Below, in pieces: positions 1 to 7,844 of a stretch of 10,333 nucleotides of DNA (positions within the stretch are counted from its first letter, which is position 1; each line of letters opens with the position of its first letter). The position numbers and the translations under genes were made by a program. A model generated the notes under the pieces. That model was not told the origin of the DNA and made no database searches. It was given only the letters and a program-made list of their open reading frames with translations. Source of the DNA: Candidatus Methylomirabilis sp. (GTDB lineage Bacteria > Methylomirabilota > Methylomirabilia > Methylomirabilales > Methylomirabilaceae); the NCBI GenBank assembly GCA_041498975.1, contig JBGQJI010000090.1, forward strand, positions 1 through 10,333, given 5' to 3'.

Positions 1-1506
1 CTCGATATGCTCGCCACGTTTGCTCAGGAGGGTCTGCACGGGCGTCCACAGGGCATACTCGCCCAGAAGGTCGGTCAGCGTCCGGAGCAACGTGCTCTTG
101 CCATTGGCCCCGATCCCATGCAGAAGAAACCACACCTGCATCGCCGTGCGTCCCGTGAGGGTGTACCCGATTGCTCGCTGGAGAAACGCGATCAACTCCA
201 CACAGTCGTTGAGAATGCGGCGCAGGAATCGCTCCCACGTTGGAGCCTTGGCATGTGGATCGTAGGCGACCGGCGCCAGCTTCGTGATGAGGTCCTTCCT
301 CCGGTGCGGCAGCAGTGACCCCGTTCGCAAATCCAACGTCCCGTTCGCCACGGTCAATAACATGGGATCGAGGTCGAACTCCTCAGGACGCACGATCAGT
401 TCTGGCTCGCTCTGGGCCACGCTCAGGAGGGCGCGGAGTTTACTGTCCGCCTCGCAGCGTGCCGCATGCTGGGCGAGCGCCTTCCGCTGTCTCTCGTCTT
501 CGCACCCGCTGGCTTCTCGATAGACAGATCGGATCGTGTCTTTGGCCCGCCGAAATGGCTCGCCGGTGTCGTCCCGTTGCCAGCGCCGTCCGTCCCAGGT
601 GACCCACGCCCGCCACGCGAAGCAGTAGCGGAGGTCGCGGCCGTGCAAGGCGACGAGCCGCCGGGCGTTGCCCAGGTCGGTCAAGTGTTCGGGTTCGGCG
701 CCACCCGTCCCGCTGGGCTCATAGCGGGCTACACTCTCGGCGATTTCTCGCACCTCACGCTCCGCTAACAGCGGGCGGCATCGTTGAGTGTTCACCGCAG
801 TGAGGCCCGCGAAGATTTCATCAGCGGTCATCCCGCGCCGTCGCATAGACCCGGCCAGGGAGGTTAAGGTGTTATTGCGCTGCCCACCGCCAATGATCGT
901 ATCCGTGGCTGCGTGGGTGCTTGCTTCGCCACGTTGTCTCTCTTGTTGGTGAATGAGTTCGACAACGGCGTCAGGGAGCGGAGCAAAAACCCCGAATGGG
1001 TGGTCAGGGTCCTCTCGATACCCTGGCGTGGGCGGGACGACGACGAGTCCGTTGACCAACACGTCCACGCCGCAGGTTTTTCCTTTCTTCCACCCGCAGG
1101 GGTGCACTTCCTGGGCAAGCCGGATCTTTCGCTTGAGACCATTCACATTGTCTGGCGGGCTGAAGTAGCGATGGGGGAATCCGGATTGACTATAATTGGT
1201 CGAGGTCTCAGGGAGTGTGATCCCCGTCGCCTCCCATGCCGCCTCCGCGTGCGGTCCGTCGAAATCGACCACGACGATCGGCGAGAACGGATGGGTCAGG
1301 AGCGCGACACCATGTGGGGGCACCGCGAACAGCGATCGGATGTCCTGGGCCGACTGGCCGTCGCGCAGCCATCGGGCCTGAAACTCTTCCTTCCACTTGA
1401 CGGTCGGGGTTTTGTCCTTTGTCACTGGCAGGACGGCGAAGCCCTGCTCATGGTAGAGCATCGCCGCTTCAAAGATCTGATCGCGGGAGGCGTCGTCGAG
1501 GCTCAT
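1..1506 (-). CDS. Bifunctional primase/polymerase (Prim-Pol) + PriCT-1 + D5_N + SF3 helicase, P4-family phage/plasmid primase (partial, 3' end outside window)
   Basis: Translated by hand; absent from the ORF track because it has no stop. The ATG at 1506 overlaps the xis stop (ATGA) and the frame stays open for 502 codons to position 1. Motifs: YHEQGFAVLPV..KTP..W, VVVDFD, SQSGFPHRYF, GVDV..VVVPP (AEP Prim-Pol); GQRNNTLTSLAGSMRRRG..EREVREIAESV (PriCT-1); TDLGNARRL..WVTWDGRRW..DPMLLTVANGTLDLRTG (D5_N); APTWERFL..LQRAIGYTLTG..LHGIGANGKST (SF3 Walker A). Confidence 0.93.
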   Translation of the reverse strand, partial: MSLDDASRDQIFEAAMLYHEQGFAVLPVTKDKTPTVKWKEEFQARWLRDGQSAQDIRSLFAVPPHGVALLTHPFSPIVVVDFDGPHAEAAWEATGITLPETSTNYSQSGFPHRYFSPPDNVNGLKRKIRLAQEVHPCGWKKGKTCGVDVLVNGLVVVPPTPGYREDPDHPFGVFAPLPDAVVELIHQQERQRGEASTHAATDTIIGGGQRNNTLTSLAGSMRRRGMTADEIFAGLTAVNTQRCRPLLAEREVREIAESVARYEPSGTGGAEPEHLTDLGNARRLVALHGRDLRYCFAWRAWVTWDGRRWQRDDTGEPFRRAKDTIRSVYREASGCEDERQRKALAQHAARCEADSKLRALLSVAQSEPELIVRPEEFDLDPMLLTVANGTLDLRTGSLLPHRRKDLITKLAPVAYDPHAKAPTWERFLRRILNDCVELIAFLQRAIGYTLTGRTAMQVWFLLHGIGANGKSTLLRTLTDLLGEYALWTPVQTLLSKRGEHIE

Positions 1507-1739
1507 CGCTGCGAGCCACCGGCCCGCTCGCCCTCGCGGGCCTTCCCGCCCTGTCTGAGCGCTCGTTCCGCGAGCAGTCGCTCAACGCTCACTCGCGTAT
1601 ACACCCTGACGCCAGCCGTGCCGACGCGGAATGCCTTCAGTTTTCCACGCTCTTCGAGCTGCCGGACCCGTCCTGACGTCACGTCGAGCAAACGCGCCAC
1701 GTCTGAGCTAAGTAGAAAATCCGTTCGTGTCTCCACCAC
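1503..1739 (-). CDS. Excisionase/AlpA-like helix-turn-helix protein (HTH_17/MerR-like), 78 aa
   Basis: LLSSDVARLLDVTSGRVRQLEERGKLKAFRVG..RVYTRVSVERLL matches the Xis-type winged-HTH pattern. A strong SD (AGGAGG) lies just upstream of the GTG, and the gene is translationally coupled to the primase. Confidence 0.85.
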   Translation of the reverse strand: MVETRTDFLLSSDVARLLDVTSGRVRQLEERGKLKAFRVGTAGVRVYTRVSVERLLAERALRQGGKAREGERAGGSQR

Positions 1740-1787
1740 CCGTCCTCCTGTGTTCGGATTCTCTCTGGAGCATAGGGTGGAAGAGTT

Positions 1788-1839
1788 ATTAGAGGAAGGG
1801 GCAATTGATAGTCAATCGAGGCAAACTGGCGGGCAAACT
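1788..1839 (-). promoter_or_regulatory. Putative sigma70 promoter for xis-primase operon with operator-like repeats
   Basis: TTGACT (1815-1810), 16-nt spacer, TCTAAT (1793-1788). The palindrome ATTGA-CTA-TCAAT (1804-1816) overlaps the -35, and the direct repeat GGCAAACT occurs at 1820-1827 and 1832-1839. Confidence 0.5.
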
Positions 1840-1879
1840 TGGTATTTGTACCTGTCGGGTCGTGGGTGGTCAGGTCTGG

Positions 1880-2545
1880 CTAGAGAAAAACGCTTTGGTG
1901 TAGGCGCGTGACGATTTCCCTATTGTCTCTGTTCACCCGCCTGACACGGTCGCGCAACTCGTCGGGACCATGTCCCTTCTCCGTGTCCATCTTGAACTTG
2001 TTCGGTGCGACCTCATGCAGAAGTGTGAGCGCCCACTCGTAATGGGCGCGGCGAAATCGGCGCTTGAACTCCTCAACGAGCACCGCTGCCAGAATGTTCT
2101 CTTTCGTCGGCCCACGCCCACTGCGCCGCAATGACTGATCCTTCATGTCTGTGATCGAGTCACCTATCTGCTTGATCCGTCGGTGAATCTGTAGCCACTC
2201 CATGTGGTCTTCGAGCCGAGTGAGCGAGGCGTGGCAGCTCCTGGAAAGCGTGTCTTCAATCTGCTCGCCTTTGAGGTGGTGCAGAAGTGTCTGCAGGCTC
2301 TTGGCCGCTCGCTTGAGCGCGTCTTGTGCAGGGCGAGACATCACGCGCAGTGGTCGCAGCGGATTCAACCCTTGCTTGATCTGGCGTTCACGCAGGGTCC
2401 AGAGGAAGGCTCGTAGGCGAGCGGCCTCACCGCCGTGTTTGACGTAGTGATCGAGGATTGGTTGACTGGGCTTTGATTGCAAAAAGCCGCAATAGTCGCG
2501 CCACTTCCGCCGTAGGTAGGCATTGCTGTGCAGGTTGTATAACAT
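1880..2545 (-). CDS. Hypothetical protein of the island, 221 aa, basic and helical; possible DNA-binding regulator
   Basis: Long ORF with a purine-rich SD (AGGGGA) before the ATG, co-oriented with neighbours and directly upstream of xis. No family recognised. Confidence 0.7.
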   Translation of the reverse strand: MLYNLHSNAYLRRKWRDYCGFLQSKPSQPILDHYVKHGGEAARLRAFLWTLRERQIKQGLNPLRPLRVMSRPAQDALKRAAKSLQTLLHHLKGEQIEDTLSRSCHASLTRLEDHMEWLQIHRRIKQIGDSITDMKDQSLRRSGRGPTKENILAAVLVEEFKRRFRRAHYEWALTLLHEVAPNKFKMDTEKGHGPDELRDRVRRVNRDNREIVTRLHQSVFL

Positions 2546-2574
2546 GGCTTCCCCTGTCGAAGCCCCTGAAGGGA

Positions 2575-2629
2575 TCGCCCGGCCAGGCCGTCAGGAGCGG
2601 CTTTTCGGGTGCGACCCTAGGCCAGGCGA
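2575..2629 (-). ncRNA. Structured three-way-junction RNA, int-alpA-motif-like candidate
   Basis: A 10-bp closing stem UCGCCUGGCC/GGCCGGGCGA encloses hairpin GGGU-CGC-ACCC, a GAAAA linker and hairpin GCCG-CUCCUGA-CGGC. It sits in an intergenic region of the island upstream of the hypothetical and xis/alpA genes. The family assignment is from recollection, not from a search. Confidence 0.6.
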
Positions 2630-2653
2630 AACACTGTGAGACTCCAGCTCAGG

Positions 2654-3010
2654 CTACCGTCCGATCCTCCCGTAGCCAGCGCGGCTCCCATCCGCGTTGT
2701 AGAAGTTCACGGAGCCGCTCCCAATCACGCCGTAGCCGATGTGACGGGAGCCGCTGTCATAGAGTTCAATCGTCCCGCCGCTCACGCGGCCGTATCCCAC
2801 ATGCTGGCCGCCACGATCACAGAACTCGACGGTCTGTGATCCGCCCCCCCTTGGCGCGATTTGGGAGGCGTCAAGGTGCAGCGTCCCGTCCATCAACTGC
2901 TGATACGTCCTATCGCGCCATGCAGCAAATCCACAGGCGGAAACGAGGAGGCACCCTGTCACGAGGATCCCGATACCCCTGCTCAACCTGAACGACCGTT
3001 CACTGGCCAT
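2654..3010 (-). CDS. Small putative lipoprotein/exported protein with three 20-aa beta-hairpin-like repeats
   Basis: Basic N-terminus, hydrophobic stretch and lipobox-like VTGC20/VSAC26. C-terminal repeats: TVEFCDRGGQHVGYGRVSGG / TIELYDSGSRHIGYGVIGSG / SVNFYNADGSRAGYGRIGR. Confidence 0.7.
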   Translation of the reverse strand: MASERSFRLSRGIGILVTGCLLVSACGFAAWRDRTYQQLMDGTLHLDASQIAPRGGGSQTVEFCDRGGQHVGYGRVSGGTIELYDSGSRHIGYGVIGSGSVNFYNADGSRAGYGRIGR

Positions 3011-3084
3011 GTACTGTCTATAGCCCGTTCAAATTCATTCAAATTGACGTAGAGAGGTTCAACCAGCAAACCTGCATCGAGCCC

Positions 3085-3135
3085 AAGAAAAATGGGAGCT
3101 TCCCGCATTTTGGGACACTTGCGGAGGCTCCCATT
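3085..3135 (-). terminator. Imperfect inverted repeat with U-tract (terminator-like and/or att junction)
   Basis: Minus strand reads AATGGGAGC-CT-CCGCA [12-nt loop] TGCGG-GAA-GCTCCCATT followed by TTTCTT. Confidence 0.65.
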
Positions 3136-3143
3136 GTCGCCTT
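3118..3143 (-). ncRNA. 5' fragment of a putative tRNA group I intron (P1 internal guide and 5' strand of P2)
   Basis: After anticodon CCU the sequence is AAGGCGACAAU-GGGAG-CCUCCGCAAG. GGGAG (3132-3128) can pair with exon UUCCU, giving the diagnostic U·G at the splice site. The layout parallels bacterial tRNA introns (guide followed by a CCU.. P2 stem). No catalytic core follows. Confidence 0.6.
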
Positions 3144-3180
3144 AGGAAACCCTTGCTCTATCCATCTGAGCTACGGGCGC
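3144..3180 (-). tRNA. tRNA-Arg(CCU), 5' half only (through anticodon)
   Basis: GCGCCCG-TA-GCTC-AGATGGATA-GAGC-A-AGGGT-TT-CCT gives an acceptor 5' strand, a complete D arm with GG and A20 (Arg identity element), and the anticodon stem 5' strand. The expected ACCCT strand, T arm and acceptor 3' strand are absent from the window. Confidence 0.88.
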
Positions 3181-3210
3181 CAGGATCTCTGCGTTGAACA
3201 AAGGCACTGA

Positions 3211-3735
3211 TCAGAATTGGATGAGCGAGAAGACCTCGTGATCTTTCAACCGGTCCCTTCCCTGTAGGAACAGCAGCTCAACCAAGAATGCCACCCCCGC
3301 CACCGTGCCGCCGAGGCCCGTGATCAGATCGATAGCGGCGGCCATGGTGCCGCCCGTGGCCAGCAAGTCATCTGCCATCAGGATCCGTTGATTCGGCAGG
3401 ACGGCGTCCTGGTGGATCTCGAGGGTGTCGGAGCCATACTCCAGGGCATACGTGGTGCTATGGGTTTTGTACGGAAGTTTCCCCGGCTTCCGGATCAACG
3501 TGGTGCCCGCGTGGAGCTTGTAGGCCAATGCTGCAGCGATGATGAACCCTCTCGCCTCGACACCAACCACGAGATCGATGCCCCGGTCGGAAAACCGTTC
3601 GGCAATCTGGTCAATGGCTGCACGGAAGGCCTTGCCGTCCGCGAGCAACGGCGTGATATCCTTGAAGAGGATGCCCTTTTGGGGAAAGTCTGGGATGTCC
3701 CGGATCTTCTCTTTCAGCCCTTCGATGGGGAGAAT
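3211..3735 (-). CDS. apt: Adenine phosphoribosyltransferase
   Basis: Motifs [42 protein letters not shown] and the PRPP-binding motif [10 protein letters not shown]. The start is uncertain: placed at an ATT 7 nt after SD AGGGAGG, since the ORF-track ATG at 3843 overlaps the upstream gene. Confidence 0.96.
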
Positions 3736-3754
3736 GGCTTTCCCTCCCTGGTGG

Positions 3755-4252
3755 TCAGGCCGTGGGCCGCGGTCGGGGCGAGTCGCCAGCCGGCAAGCGT
3801 GAGATGGCGGCAAAGGCCTGGTCAACGGCATCTTCTGGATCATGGGCTTGGATCATTTGGGGATCGTGATACGTCGTCTTGAGCCCGATGACAGGCACGC
3901 CCAGCTGAAGCGAAAACGCGATCTCAGAGAGGGTCCCGTACCTGCCCTCGATGGCCATCACCGCCTGAGACGACCGAACCACCACCAGGTTCCTGGCCAG
4001 GCTCAGGCCCGTCACGACCGGAATGTCCACGAAGGCATTCGCTTCATCCGGCCTGGCGCCGGGCAGGATCCCAACGGTGGTCCCTCCGGCCGCCTTCGCC
4101 CCCTTGCAGGCACCTTCCATCACGCCCCCGAGGCCCCCACAGATCAGGATGGCGCCTCGGCGACCGATCCCCTCCCCTACCCGCTCTGCCAGTCGATAGA
4201 TCTCCCGAGAGCAGCGTCCTGAGCCGATCACGCCGATTCTGGCGTTTCGCAC
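3755..4252 (-). CDS. TIGR00725-like / LOG-SLOG family Rossmann-fold nucleotide-binding protein
   Basis: [54 protein letters not shown]. Start placed at GTG 4252; the ORF is open to 4336. Confidence 0.88.
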
Positions 4253-4369
4253 CACCGTCCCGTGGATGGTAGGTGAAGGAAAGAGCCGCGCATGACTTGT
4301 CTCTCCTTCGTCTCGAACCTCACGCACTTTCGCCAACGAACCCCATTGCTAGGCGAGACATGAATATGT

Positions 4370-4447
<78 letters not shown>

Positions 4448-4449
4448 CG

Positions 4450-5094
4450 TCAAACCTTCCACCCCTGCTGCCCGACCAACTTGACGAATGTGCAATTTAC
4501 GAGGTCGGTCCAGATGATGTCTGCCCCTTTCTTCATGCCTTTCTTCAGGACCTGCTGCTCGATCTGGCCCACAGGCACCACGAGGCGACCATCCTCGCCG
4601 AGTTGCTCCGCGAGGCCCATCGGGACCTGTGGAGCGCCCGCGCTGACGAGAATGGCGTCGAATGGCGCCATCTCCTTCCACCCGACGGAGCCGTCCCCAA
4701 CCCGAATCAGGACGTTGTAGTAGCCGAGCGATCCCAGACGCTCCCTCGCGCGCAGCGCGAACGACTGGATCCGCTCGACAGAGTAGACCTTGGCGGCCAG
4801 TTCGGCCAGGATCGCCGTCTGATACCCTGACCCGGTGCCGACCTCCAGGACCCGGTCATGTTCTTCCAGCTCGAGCGCCTCGGTCATGAGGGCGACCATG
4901 AACGGTTGAGAGATCGTCTGCTTCTGACCAATGGGCAGCGGGGAATCCCCGTAGGCCCTCCCCCAGAGGGCCTCCTCCAGGAAGAGATGCCTGTGCACCT
5001 TCGCCATGGCCTGCAGCACCTTCGCGCTCTTGATGCCTCGCTCCAGCAACTGCTCGGCCACCATCCGCTGTCGGGCGACAGCGAAATCCGTCAT
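4450..5094 (-). CDS. pcm: Protein-L-isoaspartate(D-aspartate) O-methyltransferase
   Basis: [49 protein letters not shown]; located downstream of surE as is usual. Confidence 0.96.
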
Positions 5095-5135
5095 GAAGCT
5101 GCCAAACTGCCCTTCATAGGCCCCAATGACATCCT

Positions 5136-5164
5136 ACTATACCATGGCGCCTTCATGCTGTGAA
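5136..5164 (-). promoter_or_regulatory. Putative sigma70 promoter for pcm
   Basis: TTCACA, 17-nt spacer, TATAGT with an extended -10 TG, in the surE-pcm gap. Confidence 0.6.
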
Positions 5165-5179
5165 GAATGAGTGGGCGGA

Positions 5180-5998
5180 TCACCCGGTCGCGCTTCGCTT
5201 CCTCCGCGTGCGGGGCTGTGAACGCCGTGGCTTGTCCGCCTCCCCCCACGCCCCCCAGGGGAATTCCCAGCGCCGCACCTCTTCGAGGGCCCTCGGGTTG
5301 GTGAGGTCCAGGTGAAGGGGCGTGATCGAAATACACCCCGCCATCACCGCGGCATAGTCGCTCTCTTCCGATGGTTCCCACGTGGGCTCCTTTCCCCCGA
5401 TCCAGTAGTAGGCCTTACCACGAGGATCCACTTTCTTCACGATGATATCGTCGTAGTGCCGCCTGCCCTGTTGAGTGATCGCCACCCCCTTGATCTCTGA
5501 GGGGCGGAGATTCGGGACGTTCACGTTCAGCAAGGTGTCGTTCGGCAGGCCGTTTTTCGCGATCAGTTGCGCGAGCGTGACGGCGATCCCGGCTGCGGCG
5601 GTGAAATCGACCCGCCGCTCAGCCGCAACAGAAATGGCAAAGGCGGGAAGGCCGAGCAGCGTGGCCTCGAAGGCGGCGGAGACCGTCCCGGAGTAGGTCA
5701 CATCATCGCCCATGTTCGCCCCGAGATTGATGCCAGAGGCGACCAGATCGAACTTTCGTTTGGTCATGCCCATGACTGCCAGGGCGACGCAATCGGTCGG
5801 CGTCCCGTCAACGGTGTACCAGGTCGGACCAACCTTGGTGACCCGAAGCGGTCGATTCAACGTCAGCGAATGGCTTGCCGCACTCCGCTCACGATCAGGC
5901 GCCACGACCCACACCTCACCAAGGCTGGATAGGGCGTCCGCGAGCACACGGAGGCCGCGAGCGTGAATGCCATCATCGTTCGACACCAGGATGTTCAT
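5180..5998 (-). CDS. surE: 5'/3'-nucleotidase SurE
   Basis: Begins MNILVSNDDG; contains VVAPDRERSAASHS, DGTPTDCV, SGINLGANMG..YSGTVSAA, SITPLHLDLT. The ORF-track extension to 6118 overlaps a tRNA and is rejected. Confidence 0.97.
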   Translation of the reverse strand: MNILVSNDDGIHARGLRVLADALSSLGEVWVVAPDRERSAASHSLTLNRPLRVTKVGPTWYTVDGTPTDCVALAVMGMTKRKFDLVASGINLGANMGDDVTYSGTVSAAFEATLLGLPAFAISVAAERRVDFTAAAGIAVTLAQLIAKNGLPNDTLLNVNVPNLRPSEIKGVAITQQGRRHYDDIIVKKVDPRGKAYYWIGGKEPTWEPSEESDYAAVMAGCISITPLHLDLTNPRALEEVRRWEFPWGAWGEADKPRRSQPRTRRKRSATG

Positions 5999-6007
5999 CG
6001 GTGACCC

Positions 6008-6036
6008 AAAAAAAAGAGCAGATGCGATATCTGCCC
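6008..6036 (-). terminator. Intrinsic terminator downstream of tRNA-Pro(GGG)
   Basis: Stem GGGCAGAT / ATCTGCTC (8 bp including one G·U) with a 5-nt loop, followed by T8. Confidence 0.7.
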
Positions 6037-6073
6037 GCGAGTGCGCGTCACACGCCGATGAGGAGGAGGGAAT

Positions 6074-6150
6074 TGGTCGGGGCGATTGGATTTGAACCAA
6101 CGACCCCTGGCCCCCCATGCCAGTGCGCTACCAGGCTGCGCCACGCCCCG
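6074..6150 (-). tRNA. tRNA-Pro(GGG)
   Basis: Complete 77-nt cloverleaf, anticodon arm CTGGC-AT-GGG-GG-GCCAG, encoded CCA. This is the familiar position after an IHF/HU-MerR pair. Confidence 0.97.
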
Positions 6151-6169
6151 AATATGCGCGGTCCTCACG

Positions 6170-6580
6170 TTAGGGGGAAGGTCTGCGCAATAATGAGGAG
6201 ATATCCTTCAACTCGTCCTTGATCCGTTGCAGGGAATCCAGCACCGTCGGCGCGAGAGGGCCCTGCTCCGCCGCAAGACGACGCCTGGCGCCGGCGATGG
6301 TGAATCGCTGCCGGTAGAGTAACTCCTTGATGCGCAGGACAGCCAGGACGTCATTGCGTCTGTACAGGCGCTGGCCGCTACGGCTTTTGGCCGGACGGAG
6401 GGTGCCGAACTCCGTCTCCCAATAGCGGAGGATGTACGGTTGGACCCCGGTCAGCTCAGCGACCTCTCCGATCTTGAAGTAGAGCTTATCCGGGACCTCG
6501 ACCGTGTCGCCAAGGCGGGAGCCGGGCTTTTGTGGGGCCCGAGCCTTCGATCGCGCCAACCTCACCCGTCCGCTCGGCAC
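6170..6580 (-). CDS. MerR-family HTH transcriptional regulator (ihfA-associated type)
   Basis: [50 protein letters not shown]. The start is uncertain (GTG 6580 after a GGAGG run; ORF open to 6601). Confidence 0.92.
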
Positions 6581-6610
6581 GACCCCTCCCTCCTCCACCA
6601 AGCGGGCTAG

Positions 6611-6889
6611 CTAGCCCCCAGCGTTCACAAGCTGATGCAGGGCCTTACCGGGCTTGAACTTGAGGACCTTTCGAGCCGCGATGGTGATCTCTTCGCCGGT
6701 CTGCGGGTTTCGCCCCTTCCTCGCCCGTTTGGCTCTCACTTGAAAGGAGCCGAAGCCGACAAGCTGGATCTTCTCTCCCTTCTTGAGGGCATCCTTCACC
6801 ATGTCGAGGGTGGCCTCCACGGCCTCCATCGCCTGTTTCTTGGTAAGGCCCTTCTCGGCGACGATCGACGCTATGTCGGCCTTGGTCAT
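6611..6889 (-). CDS. HU/IHF family nucleoid-associated DNA-binding protein
   Basis: MTKADI..LVGFGSF..RKGRNPQTG..FKPGKAL, with SD GAGGAGG before ATG 6889. The sequence is HU-like while the gene position is ihfA-like, so no symbol is given. Confidence 0.96.
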   Translation of the reverse strand: MTKADIASIVAEKGLTKKQAMEAVEATLDMVKDALKKGEKIQLVGFGSFQVRAKRARKGRNPQTGEEITIAARKVLKFKPGKALHQLVNAGG

Positions 6890-6953
6890 CGTGTCCCTCC
6901 TCTCCCGCTGCACATATGCCGCTACCGGGATCCGGCAGCCTCACACGCCCCTG

Positions 6954-7844
6954 TTATTTCGTGACGATGAGAGTTGGAAACCCCTTCTCTCGAAGCTCCT
7001 TGGCTTTGTGGATCGCTTCACCCCGGCTGCTGAACTGGCCCACTCTGACGAGGTGCAGCGTGGAGCTGCCTGTTTCTGAGACGATCTTCGGGGTGAAGCC
7101 TTTCTTCTGGAGCTCGTGCGCAAGGTCGATCGCCTGATCCAGTCCGGCCGACCTGCCGGCCTCCACGCGATAGCGGCCATCCGACTCGCCCAGGATGGCC
7201 GGAACTCCCTCGGCCCTGAGTTTTTCCACCAGGGTGTCCGCTTCCGCCCTGTCAACGGCCGCTGTCACCAGGACGACATGCTGGGTGGCGGGCGTGTGGG
7301 CCTTCCGGATCGTCACAGGGTACCCGAGCTTCTGCAGCCTCTGCCTCAAGGCGAGCGCGTTGCGCTCGCGTGCCATTGCCCCGACTTGGATGCTGAAGCG
7401 GCCTTGCGAAGCCGCCTTTGGGGCCAAAGGCGCAACAGCTTCCGGCGGCTGCATCGCCCGTGGCTGAGGCGGCTCGGATTCGGCATTCTTTTCCGGCGGC
7501 GACGCGACGGGACGCTTCGACTGCGGCCCTGTGTCCGAATCAAACCCCTTTGCCGGTCGTTCTGGGATCACCACGGCAGACGGCATGAAGGGCGCCGGTG
7601 AAGGTCGAGAGGCTTGTTCTGGTGGCGGAATCACGGTACGCCCCGGGGTGGGTGAGGGCGTGTCGGATCCCCTACCGATGTAGGTCCCGATGAGGTTCTT
7701 GGCTCCAAGCGCGGCAACCACGACCAGGAGCAGGCTGAGAAGGAAGATCCGACGGCTCGACGGGTGTGGGGCAGTCGGTTCTGGCGGCGCCTGATCGTCA
7801 GCCTCACCAGCGTTTGCCGGTTTCATGAGATTGAAGCGCCTCAT
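6954..7844 (-). CDS. Bitopic membrane protein with Pro-rich linker and C-terminal SPOR domains (FtsN/DedD-like architecture)
   Basis: TM segment IFLLSLLLVVVAALGA, a Pro/Ala/Ser-rich linker, and SPOR-like segments FSIQVGAM..NALALRQRLQKLGY, YRVEAG..AIDLAHELQKKGF and HLVRVGQFSSRGEA..LREKGF. The ATG overlaps the miaB stop (TGATG). Confidence 0.85.
   Translation of the reverse strand: MRRFNLMKPANAGEADDQAPPEPTAPHPSSRRIFLLSLLLVVVAALGAKNLIGTYIGRGSDTPSPTPGRTVIPPPEQASRPSPAPFMPSAVVIPERPAKGFDSDTGPQSKRPVASPPEKNAESEPPQPRAMQPPEAVAPLAPKAASQGRFSIQVGAMARERNALALRQRLQKLGYPVTIRKAHTPATQHVVLVTAAVDRAEADTLVEKLRAEGVPAILGESDGRYRVEAGRSAGLDQAIDLAHELQKKGFTPKIVSETGSSTLHLVRVGQFSSRGEAIHKAKELREKGFPTLIVTK

Follow-up and report, generated by a model that had tools for sequence, protein, structure and literature searches.

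A tyrosine-integrase element probably inserted into the anticodon loop of tRNA-Arg(CCU) in Candidatus Methylomirabilis, displacing the 5' half of the gene

What has happened to the tRNA-Arg(CCU) gene at this locus of a Candidatus Methylomirabilis genome? The stretch of DNA analyzed here (10,333 nt, hereafter the window) contains the 5' half of the gene, which stops in the anticodon loop and adjoins foreign DNA. Some bacterial tRNA-Arg(CCU) genes carry group I introns at this position, and an earlier interpretation of the letters alone (the sequence-only reading) had proposed that the gene is split by such an intron, that the intron is itself interrupted by an island inserted in its P2 region, and that tRNA, ribozyme and satellite form a three-layer system. 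We examined the half gene, its counterparts in related genomes and the DNA on both sides of the break.

Read from 3180 to 3142 on the minus strand, the half consists of the acceptor-stem 5' strand, the D arm, the anticodon-stem 5' strand and a loop, TTCCTAA, with the anticodon CCT. An identical 39-mer forms the 5' part of an intact, 77-nt tRNA-Arg(CCU) gene in nine of 11 related loci. ARAGORN called no tRNA at 3142 to 3180 and found only two tRNA-Pro genes in the window. A degenerate pattern for the T arm and the acceptor 3' strand gave 0 matches in the window at up to three mismatches, and no second copy of the tRNA 5' half is present in the window. The sequence-only reading was therefore right that island genes follow the half with no T arm and that the gene is not restored at this end. 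On the chromosomal side, the stop codon of apt lies 30 nt upstream of the tRNA fragment, and the genes further upstream encode a TIGR00725/SLOG protein, pcm, surE, a MerR regulator, IHF-alpha, a SPOR protein, MiaB and an aminotransferase. The features on this side are as follows.

3142 to 3180, minus strand: 5' fragment of tRNA-Arg(CCU), 39 nt, probably displaced; tRNA positions 1 to 38 plus one extra D-loop base (read directly)
3142 to 3148, minus strand: anticodon loop TTCCTAA, putative crossover (overlap) segment; tRNA homology stops at its 3' edge
3211 to 3843, minus strand: chromosomal apt (adenine phosphoribosyltransferase); NCBIfam apt equivalogs, E 1e-69, ORF residues 41 to 210
4370 to 4446: tRNA-Pro(CGG) (ARAGORN)
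6074 to 6150: tRNA-Pro(GGG) (ARAGORN)

We scanned genome contigs with the exact 39-nt half as the query and retrieved 11 loci with 10-kb flanks, all on MAG contigs. Nine of the 11 are titled Methylomirabilota or Methylomirabilis, and the source contig of the window is not among them. The source MAG of two loci, L001 and L010, is titled “Patescibacteria group bacterium,” yet these contigs are 77–84% identical to Methylomirabilota loci. An exact scan finds only those island-borne halves that are identical to the native half and, as the query included the AA that follows CCT, an intron placed right after the anticodon could be found only if it began with AA. ARAGORN identified an uninterrupted 77-nt tRNA-Arg(CCU) gene in nine of the loci and none in the other two (L001 and L003). 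In all nine intact genes, the 39-mer runs straight into ACCCTGTGTCGCAGGTTCAAGTCCTGTCGGGCGCACCA. Seven of them (L002, L004–L008 and L011) lie in the native apt/tRNA-Pro context, with flanks 75–83% identical to those of the window over 1.8–4.0 kb and with apt in synteny. The upstream flank of the window is likewise syntenic with these native loci and is 82–83% identical to L003 and L004 over 3.3–4.0 kb.

These relatives define the point at which the gene is broken. The last base homologous to the tRNA is position 38, which closes the 7-nt loop on its 3' side. Intact relatives read TTCCTAA and then ACCCT; therefore, the AA after CCU represents tRNA positions 37 and 38. The half described by the sequence-only reading is thus real, but it does not end exactly at CCU, as was claimed, since the tRNA sequence continues through AA to the edge of the loop. 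In the window, L001 and L003, which are three separate assemblies, similarity to the intact gene stops at one and the same base, directly after TTCCTAA. Past the break, L001 is homologous to the window for ~145 nt, through a shared block that reaches the ATG of the first island ORF, and L003 is unrelated to the island end of the window. The upstream flank of L003 is 97% identical to those of L004 (over 3317 nt) and L002 (over 1864 nt), both of which have an intact gene. To judge from these flanks, L003 and L004/L002 are a near-isogenic pair of occupied and empty sites. Among the genes downstream of the tRNA in L004 we found no integrase, and nothing there points to a classical 3'-type island. 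The fragment ends at the loop, adjoins foreign DNA and keeps the orientation of the gene, as expected of an island with a 5' tDNA fragment. The crossover probably took place within the anticodon loop, where we place it because of how anticodon-loop att sites work, as outlined in a review (PMC8371274).

If an element has inserted here, its other end should be informative, and this far end is known from relatives only. L001 and L010 come from one MAG assembly, and the link between them consists of MAG membership and synteny to the uninterrupted locus L006, not of continuous sequence. The upstream flank of L001 is 83.8% identical to L006 over 4013 nt, up to position −10 from the tRNA, and L010, from tRNA position +39 onward, is 77.3% identical to L006 over 783 nt and 77.6% identical to L011 over 750 nt. 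Side by side, L001 and L010 resemble a single L006-like locus into which DNA has been inserted. In L010, the 3' end of a tyrosine integrase gene is followed by an intact tRNA (217–293) and then by the normal downstream gene (TPR). Positions 1–216 encode the C-terminus of a tyrosine recombinase on the tRNA strand, open from the start of the contig (LLGHS...RYSH; ...VKELLGHSEIAMTMRYSHPTPENKRRAVNLL...). The PF00589 match of this fragment (E 5.7e-4) falls under the curated cut-off because just 25 domain residues are present. The two repeat copies, in L001 and L010, share the tRNA sequence from +1 to the loop plus one base, and upstream of +1 they are different. An element that has to provide a functional 5' half would be expected to show these limits.

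A second locus, L009, shows a similar layout on a single contig, and binning is therefore no issue. The order is apt, an island end of the L003 type, ~3.5 kb of cargo (Rieske/FAD reductase, Hva1_TUDOR and DUF488 genes), an integrase remnant, an intact tRNA and the TPR gene also seen in L010. The displaced half and about 55 nt are deleted at the island end homologous to L003. The remnant comprises the last ~25 integrase codons and a spacer, and can be aligned to L010 upstream of the tRNA (88% mean column identity across the alignment, identical tRNA included). By this gene order and alignment, L009 is a decayed version of the L001/L010 layout. Both layouts indicate that the element brings a 5' half and that the chromosome keeps the 3' half. 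One of the outcomes listed by the sequence-only reading was that the far island end provides a new 5' exon; this is seen in L001/L010 and in L009, but no ribozyme is involved. A search of the tRNA strand upstream of the rebuilt tRNA in L009 and L010 found no sigma-70-type promoter. In the L009/L010 alignment, conserved blocks are visible by eye in this region (TTGTRC, TAACTAT and AAAGGA), which we do not call a promoter.

The integrase gene itself overlaps the tRNA. We compared the 84-aa ORF of L010 with longer proteins and obtained 151 matches, 120 of which were listed. The best four of the 151 (P0001–P0004) are 378 aa long and are 90, 77, 77 and 77% identical to the L010 fragment. All four end in APVAQMDRARVS, which is the exact translation of window positions 3180 to 3142, with the TAA of the anticodon loop as the stop codon. 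The tRNA 5' half and anticodon loop thus double as the final 12 codons and the stop codon of the integrase ORF. This overlap is present in five related sequences, with no stop or frameshift in the variable 22 codons that precede it. At least seven tails resembling a translated tRNA 5' part were seen by eye among the 120 matches listed (P0001–P0004, P0007, P0008 and P0091), of which those of P0007, P0008 and P0091 were judged by eye and not computed. With the crossover at the stop codon of the integrase, integration leaves the gene whole. An attP that splits the ORF, the hallmark of “suicidal” integrases of the SSV/pTN3 type, is not what we see, as the L010 copy and the four 378-aa relatives are open to the stop.

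These relatives bear on whether the tRNA gene is rebuilt in the genome of the window as well. The far end of the element lies beyond the window, which holds neither a 3' half nor a second 5' half, and tRNA-Arg(CCU) might be switched off while the element is integrated, or dead, with AGG read by another tRNA-Arg. There are phages that interrupt a tRNA gene and leave it unrestored, according to the preprint account of pelagiphage HTVC019P (10.1101/410191), and tRNA-dependent lysogeny has been described as well (excerpt of PMC10865867). However, the island end of L001 that is homologous to that of the window goes with a rebuilt tRNA in L010, the rebuilt gene has been retained in L009 although the integrase has decayed, and four related full-length integrases carry the tRNA 5' half at their 3' ends. 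We therefore regard a gene left unrestored as unlikely. Most likely, the element of the window carries its own 5' half and would rebuild the gene at its far end, as the comparison with these relatives suggests.

Short repeats provide a further link between the two ends. L010 has two copies of the 10-mer ATGGACAGTA, spaced by 11 nt, at −121 and −110 from the loop, and L009 has the pair at −122 and −111 with 1–2 mismatches. On the distal side, the pair recurs with the same 11-nt spacing and 0–2 mismatches at +128 and +139 in L001 and at +127 and +138 in the window, where its copies are as follows.

3021 to 3012 and 3010 to 3001, minus strand: 10-mers ATAGACAGTA and ATGGCCAGTG, 11 nt apart, candidate arm-type integrase sites

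All copies of the pair are on the tRNA strand. The 10-mer has a count of 4 in the whole window against 4.08 expected by chance, so what counts is that the copies are paired, how they are spaced and that their distances from the loop mirror each other. The presence of the pair on both sides links the distal end of the window type to the integrase end of the L010 type, and the pairs may be the arm-type integrase sites of one attP. This would fit the arm-DNA-binding domain PF12167 annotated in P0003. L010 contains one more ATGGACAGTA, at +137 within its chromosomal DNA, where the TPR gene is variable; it is not kept in L006, L011 and L009, and it may be a chance occurrence.

Beyond the break, profile matches identified island-type genes, and the island part of the window is composed of the following features.

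3084 to 3134, minus strand: stem-loop (3134 to 3092) plus T-rich tract (3091 to 3084), resembling an intrinsic terminator (folding)
2998 to 3141, minus strand: island terminal block, conserved with the island end of L001 (alignment; blastn 75% over 93 nt)
2654 to 3010, minus strand: first island gene, ORF of 118 aa with a lipoprotein-like N-terminus and repeated G-Y-G motifs (translation)
2564 to 2627, minus strand: int-alpA RNA motif RF02996 (49.4 bits against a gathering score of 35.8, E 5e-8)
1880 to 2545, minus strand: ORF of 221 aa directly downstream of the int-alpA motif; no family match in Pfam, PHROGs or NCBIfam
1503 to 1739, minus strand: ORF of 78 aa, excisionase/AlpA-like helix-turn-helix (weak match, phrog_66, E 1.7e-5)
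1 to 1506, minus strand: primase-polymerase/D5_N primase-helicase gene, cut off by the left end of the window (Pfam Prim-Pol, PriCT_1, D5_N)

The 118-aa ORF has no match in Pfam, PHROGs or NCBIfam. For the 78-aa ORF, phrog_66 is annotated as “excisionase and transcriptional regulator,” other excisionase PHROGs match at 1e-3, and NCBIfam gives no match. The primase gene matches phrog_1156 (DNA primase, E 2e-67) and the P4-family C-terminal domain TIGR01613 (109.6 bits against a cut-off of 108.7). Its best matches in a phage collection are distant (<60% identity) and do not help in typing the element. No integrase or capsid-related genes were detected within the window, composition does not set the island apart (G+C 0.61 versus 0.62), and a comparison of the island DNA (1–3143) with all 11 loci returned only the 93-nt tip match in L001. 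Taken together with the relatives, we consider it probable that this is a site-specific element driven by a tyrosine integrase, with a P4-like replication module consisting of the primase, the AlpA-like protein and the int-alpA RNA.

The tip of the island folds into a hairpin of 43 nt (−20.9 kcal/mol, z −3.8; matched by 0 of 200 shuffled sequences). The homologous end of L001 folds its own stem from different bases (−24 kcal/mol, z −5.5), followed by the T-run GATTTTTGG. Both have a G+C-rich stem and a U-run on the transcribed strand, as in intrinsic terminators. A simple terminator scan of the window did not list the hairpin because its loop exceeds the 8-nt limit of the scan. The island end of L003 starts with a much longer hairpin that is unrelated to that of the window (−45.9 kcal/mol, z −6.8). 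We discarded a consensus fold of the window and L001 hairpins as meaningless, since MAFFT placed the stems out of register, and we claim no covariation. The hairpin would be expected to stop transcripts that arrive from apt and the old tRNA promoter and, in the excised circle, from int. The stretch that the sequence-only reading took for P1 and P2 of an intron, GGGAG...CUCCGCAAG, falls inside this structure, with GGGAG as its 5' arm. It is better described as a hairpin with a T-run, comparable to the one at the homologous end of L001, where alignment with the window shows that the word GGGAG is not conserved.

The explanation that we favor, with a probability of about 0.8, is that a tyrosine-integrase element inserted into the anticodon loop, that its attP carries the tRNA 5' half, and that the gene is rebuilt at the far end with no intron involved. 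The attP would hold a copy of the 5' part (positions 1–38) at the 3' end of the integrase gene, and in the circle the 3' end of int, together with the first 10-mer pair, would be followed by the tRNA 5' half, the crossover loop, the hairpin/terminator and the other 10-mer pair. Recombination with the anticodon loop of the chromosome would leave apt, the old 5' half and the island tip with its hairpin at the end seen here. The minus-strand fragment at 3142–3180 would then be the original 5' half of the chromosome, displaced by the insertion. At the far end, the integrase would be followed by the island 5' half joined directly to the chromosomal 3' half (ACCCT...CGGGCGCACCA), giving an intact tRNA gene of 77 nt. 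Transcription of the rebuilt tRNA would start in island DNA, as part of the int transcript or from signals within the final ~130 nt, a stretch that L009 kept despite losing the integrase.

Two other explanations of the junction do not hold up well. All of the data are metagenome assemblies and deletions do occur at the locus, as the loss of the displaced half in L009 shows, so the junction might be an assembly chimera or a deletion scar that starts by chance in the anticodon loop. This is very improbable given an identical break base in three independent assemblies with two unrelated island ends and the homology between L001 and the window past the break; moreover, the only repeat open to mis-joining is 39–40 nt long. 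The second is the group I intron after the anticodon with an island in its P2, to which we give next to no credence: such introns do occur at this position, and a pairing of UUCCU with GGGAG, which lies 13 nt beyond CCU, is possible on paper, but the AA after CCU belongs to the tRNA, GGGAG is one arm of a hairpin whose counterpart in L001 lacks the word, and orthologous genes have no intron.

Several of these points deserve detail. Rfam gave no group I intron match at the gathering score in the whole window, and for positions 1–4400 at E≤10 it gave nothing but int-alpA and a junk raiA match. This negative is not decisive alone, as the sequence-only reading expected the intron core outside the window. 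That reading had named beforehand an intron-less tRNA-Arg(CCU) at the apt–tRNA-Arg locus of relatives as the outcome that would speak against it, and this is what the comparison revealed: seven of the 11 loci are intron-less in native context and two more carry rebuilt genes, all of 77 nt, and among the native loci are L002 and L004, whose flanks are 82–83% identical to those of the window. As for the proposed guide pairing, 5-mers able to pair with UUCCU (RGGRR) occur in 16% of all 26-nt segments of this sequence, or 26% as calculated from per-base frequency; therefore, the GGGAG pairing is not beyond chance. From these sequence comparisons, we conclude that no intron is involved. The resemblance to group I introns in bacterial tRNA anticodon loops is limited to the position beside the tRNA-Arg(CCU) anticodon, whereas this locus has no core, intron-less orthologues and a terminator-like hairpin in place of P1/P2. 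A false lead is thereby removed, and there is no three-layer system of tRNA, ribozyme and satellite.

Mobile elements that use the 5' half of a tRNA gene have been described, in small numbers. In the account of Islander by Hudson, Lau and Williams (2015, PMC4383910), a 5' tDNA fragment is present in 159 of 3919 islands and a 3' fragment in 3760, and the filters look for a 5' fragment on the upstream side of the tDNA. As far as that account goes, this minority class resembles our locus: a tyrosine-integrase island in a tRNA gene, an att centered on the anticodon loop, and a displaced 5' fragment that precedes the regenerated gene and points the same way. According to the relevant passages of the review cited above (PMC8371274), bacterial recombinant tRNA genes keep their own promoter with very few exceptions, and pTN3-like integrases of Thermococcales use the tRNA 5' half as attB, with the rebuilt tRNA downstream of the integrase and expressed from its promoter, an arrangement encountered only rarely among bacteria. 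Those archaeal integrases are “suicidal,” the gene being split by integration, whereas here the gene stays whole and P0001–P0004 keep the tRNA-encoded tail. Pelagiphage HTVC120P, as summarized in its preprint (10.1101/410191), integrates in the middle of a tRNA-Arg gene, and its partial 5' end completes the split host gene. It is a T7-like podovirus of SAR11 whose half carries two base changes; the island-side half in L009 and L010 is identical to the native 39-mer, but our scan demanded identity. Given the Islander, pTN3-like and HTVC120P cases, the layout of the window belongs to a known, rare kind.

Classical anticodon-loop islands and prophages, in the description of the same review (PMC8371274), likewise use the 7-nt loop as the overlap, flanked by a symmetric stem. 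They bring a 3' part, displace a 3' fragment and keep the chromosomal promoter. At our locus, the polarity is mirrored and the element would supply the transcription signals. The dusA-specific integrases, in the portion of PMC4482086 available to us, also insert in the 5' end of their target, which is a protein-coding gene. The excerpt of PMC9897764 that we consulted contained nothing useful on 5' fragments. Limited searching of the literature by name found no Methylomirabilota example and no record of this integrase family.

The overlap of integrase and tRNA raises the thought that the two genes are coupled, such that integrase output would sense integration and the AGG-reading tRNA of the host would depend on transcription of the element. 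When the element is an excised circle, transcription of int would finish at the terminator hairpin of the island, leaving a message that can be translated to its own stop. Once the element is integrated, the message would read on into the complete tRNA, and processing at the tRNA 5' end would remove the int stop codon. The two features behind this idea are the conserved ORF/tRNA overlap and the hairpin, and we consider such coupling distinctly doubtful.

This locus provides a clean bacterial example of a rare “mirror” type of tRNA-gene integration. The phylum has received little study (Methylomirabilota-type MAGs), and its loci include occupied sites next to empty and decayed ones. Island finders that seek displaced 3' fragments alone would miss such elements. 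Integrase ORFs of these elements extend into the tRNA gene, which is a trap for annotation. Furthermore, the tRNA-Arg(CCU) of the host would rely on island DNA for its 5' half and for being transcribed, which may make loss of the element difficult; the remnant in L009 points the same way.

At the integrase end of the related element in L010, a metagenome-assembled contig that also carries the intact rebuilt tRNA, the tRNA 5' half lies within the integrase ORF (L010:1-255, + strand), and the stop codon of that ORF is the TAA of the anticodon loop. Four full-length, 378-aa relatives (P0001-P0004) all share the C-terminal end APVAQMDRARVS, which is the exact translation of window positions 3180->3142. 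Visual inspection, the sole method used for these further tails, shows sequences resembling translated tRNA genes in integrase relatives P0007, P0008, P0036, and P0044 as well; one tail seemingly spans an entire tRNA, and two resemble the tRNA reverse strand. These tails suggest that ORF calls extend into att-site tRNAs on either side.

Features of the window on both sides of the displaced tRNA half are as follows.

2564-2627, - strand, int-alpA RNA motif (RF02996, 49.4 bits)
2654-3010, - strand, first island ORF, 118 aa, lipoprotein-like signal with Cys
3001-3021, - strand, 10-mer pair, ATGGACAGTA or near copies, 11-nt spacing
4370-4446, - strand, tRNA-Pro(CGG)
6074-6150, - strand, tRNA-Pro(GGG)

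No Pfam, PHROGs, or NCBIfam family matches the 118-aa ORF, in which a G-Y-G-containing unit is repeated three times. The int-alpA motif is located directly 5' of a 221-aa ORF without a known family; neither an integrase nor the AlpA-like gene itself occupies that downstream position. On the chromosomal side, the two tRNA-Pro genes are ~92% alike and flank surE-pcm. Across related loci, gene order is conserved as IHF-alpha, MerR, tRNA-Pro, surE, pcm, tRNA-Pro, SLOG, apt, tRNA-Arg. L001, which holds the distal island end from the same MAG as L010, and L010 itself (DATMXF010000094.1 and DATMXF010000014.1, respectively) are both titled "Patescibacteria group bacterium." This label or bin looks wrong, as both contigs are 77-84% identical to Methylomirabilota loci over kilobases.

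A second island end, unrelated to that of the window, abuts the tRNA half at the same base in related locus L003 (1-2889). It opens with a near-perfect hairpin of ~70 nt and contains a tandem TTCACACCA-like pair. A homologous stretch is retained next to apt in L009, where the integrase of a decayed element (4196-7720, with a masked run of N at about 7508-7541) is down to its last ~25 codons. The displaced tRNA half is gone from this element, while the rebuilt tRNA and its island-derived ~130-nt leader are retained.

Pairs of ATGGACAGTA, exact or near copies 11 nt apart, flank the putative core of the element's attachment site (attP) on both sides, and lie at matching distances from the anticodon loop in the window, L001, and L010/L009. 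An exact ATGGACAGTA also occurs within a TPR gene on the chromosomal side (L010:381-390, +137 from the loop), at the distance expected for the island's distal pair. This copy is not kept in L006, L011, or L009, and may be chance or the vestige of an earlier element. The integrase-side copies code for DGQYMDSK, a motif in the tail of the protein. Many of the 120 integrase matches listed have a similar tail, DGHYMDTK; therefore, this protein "motif" may reflect DNA sites.
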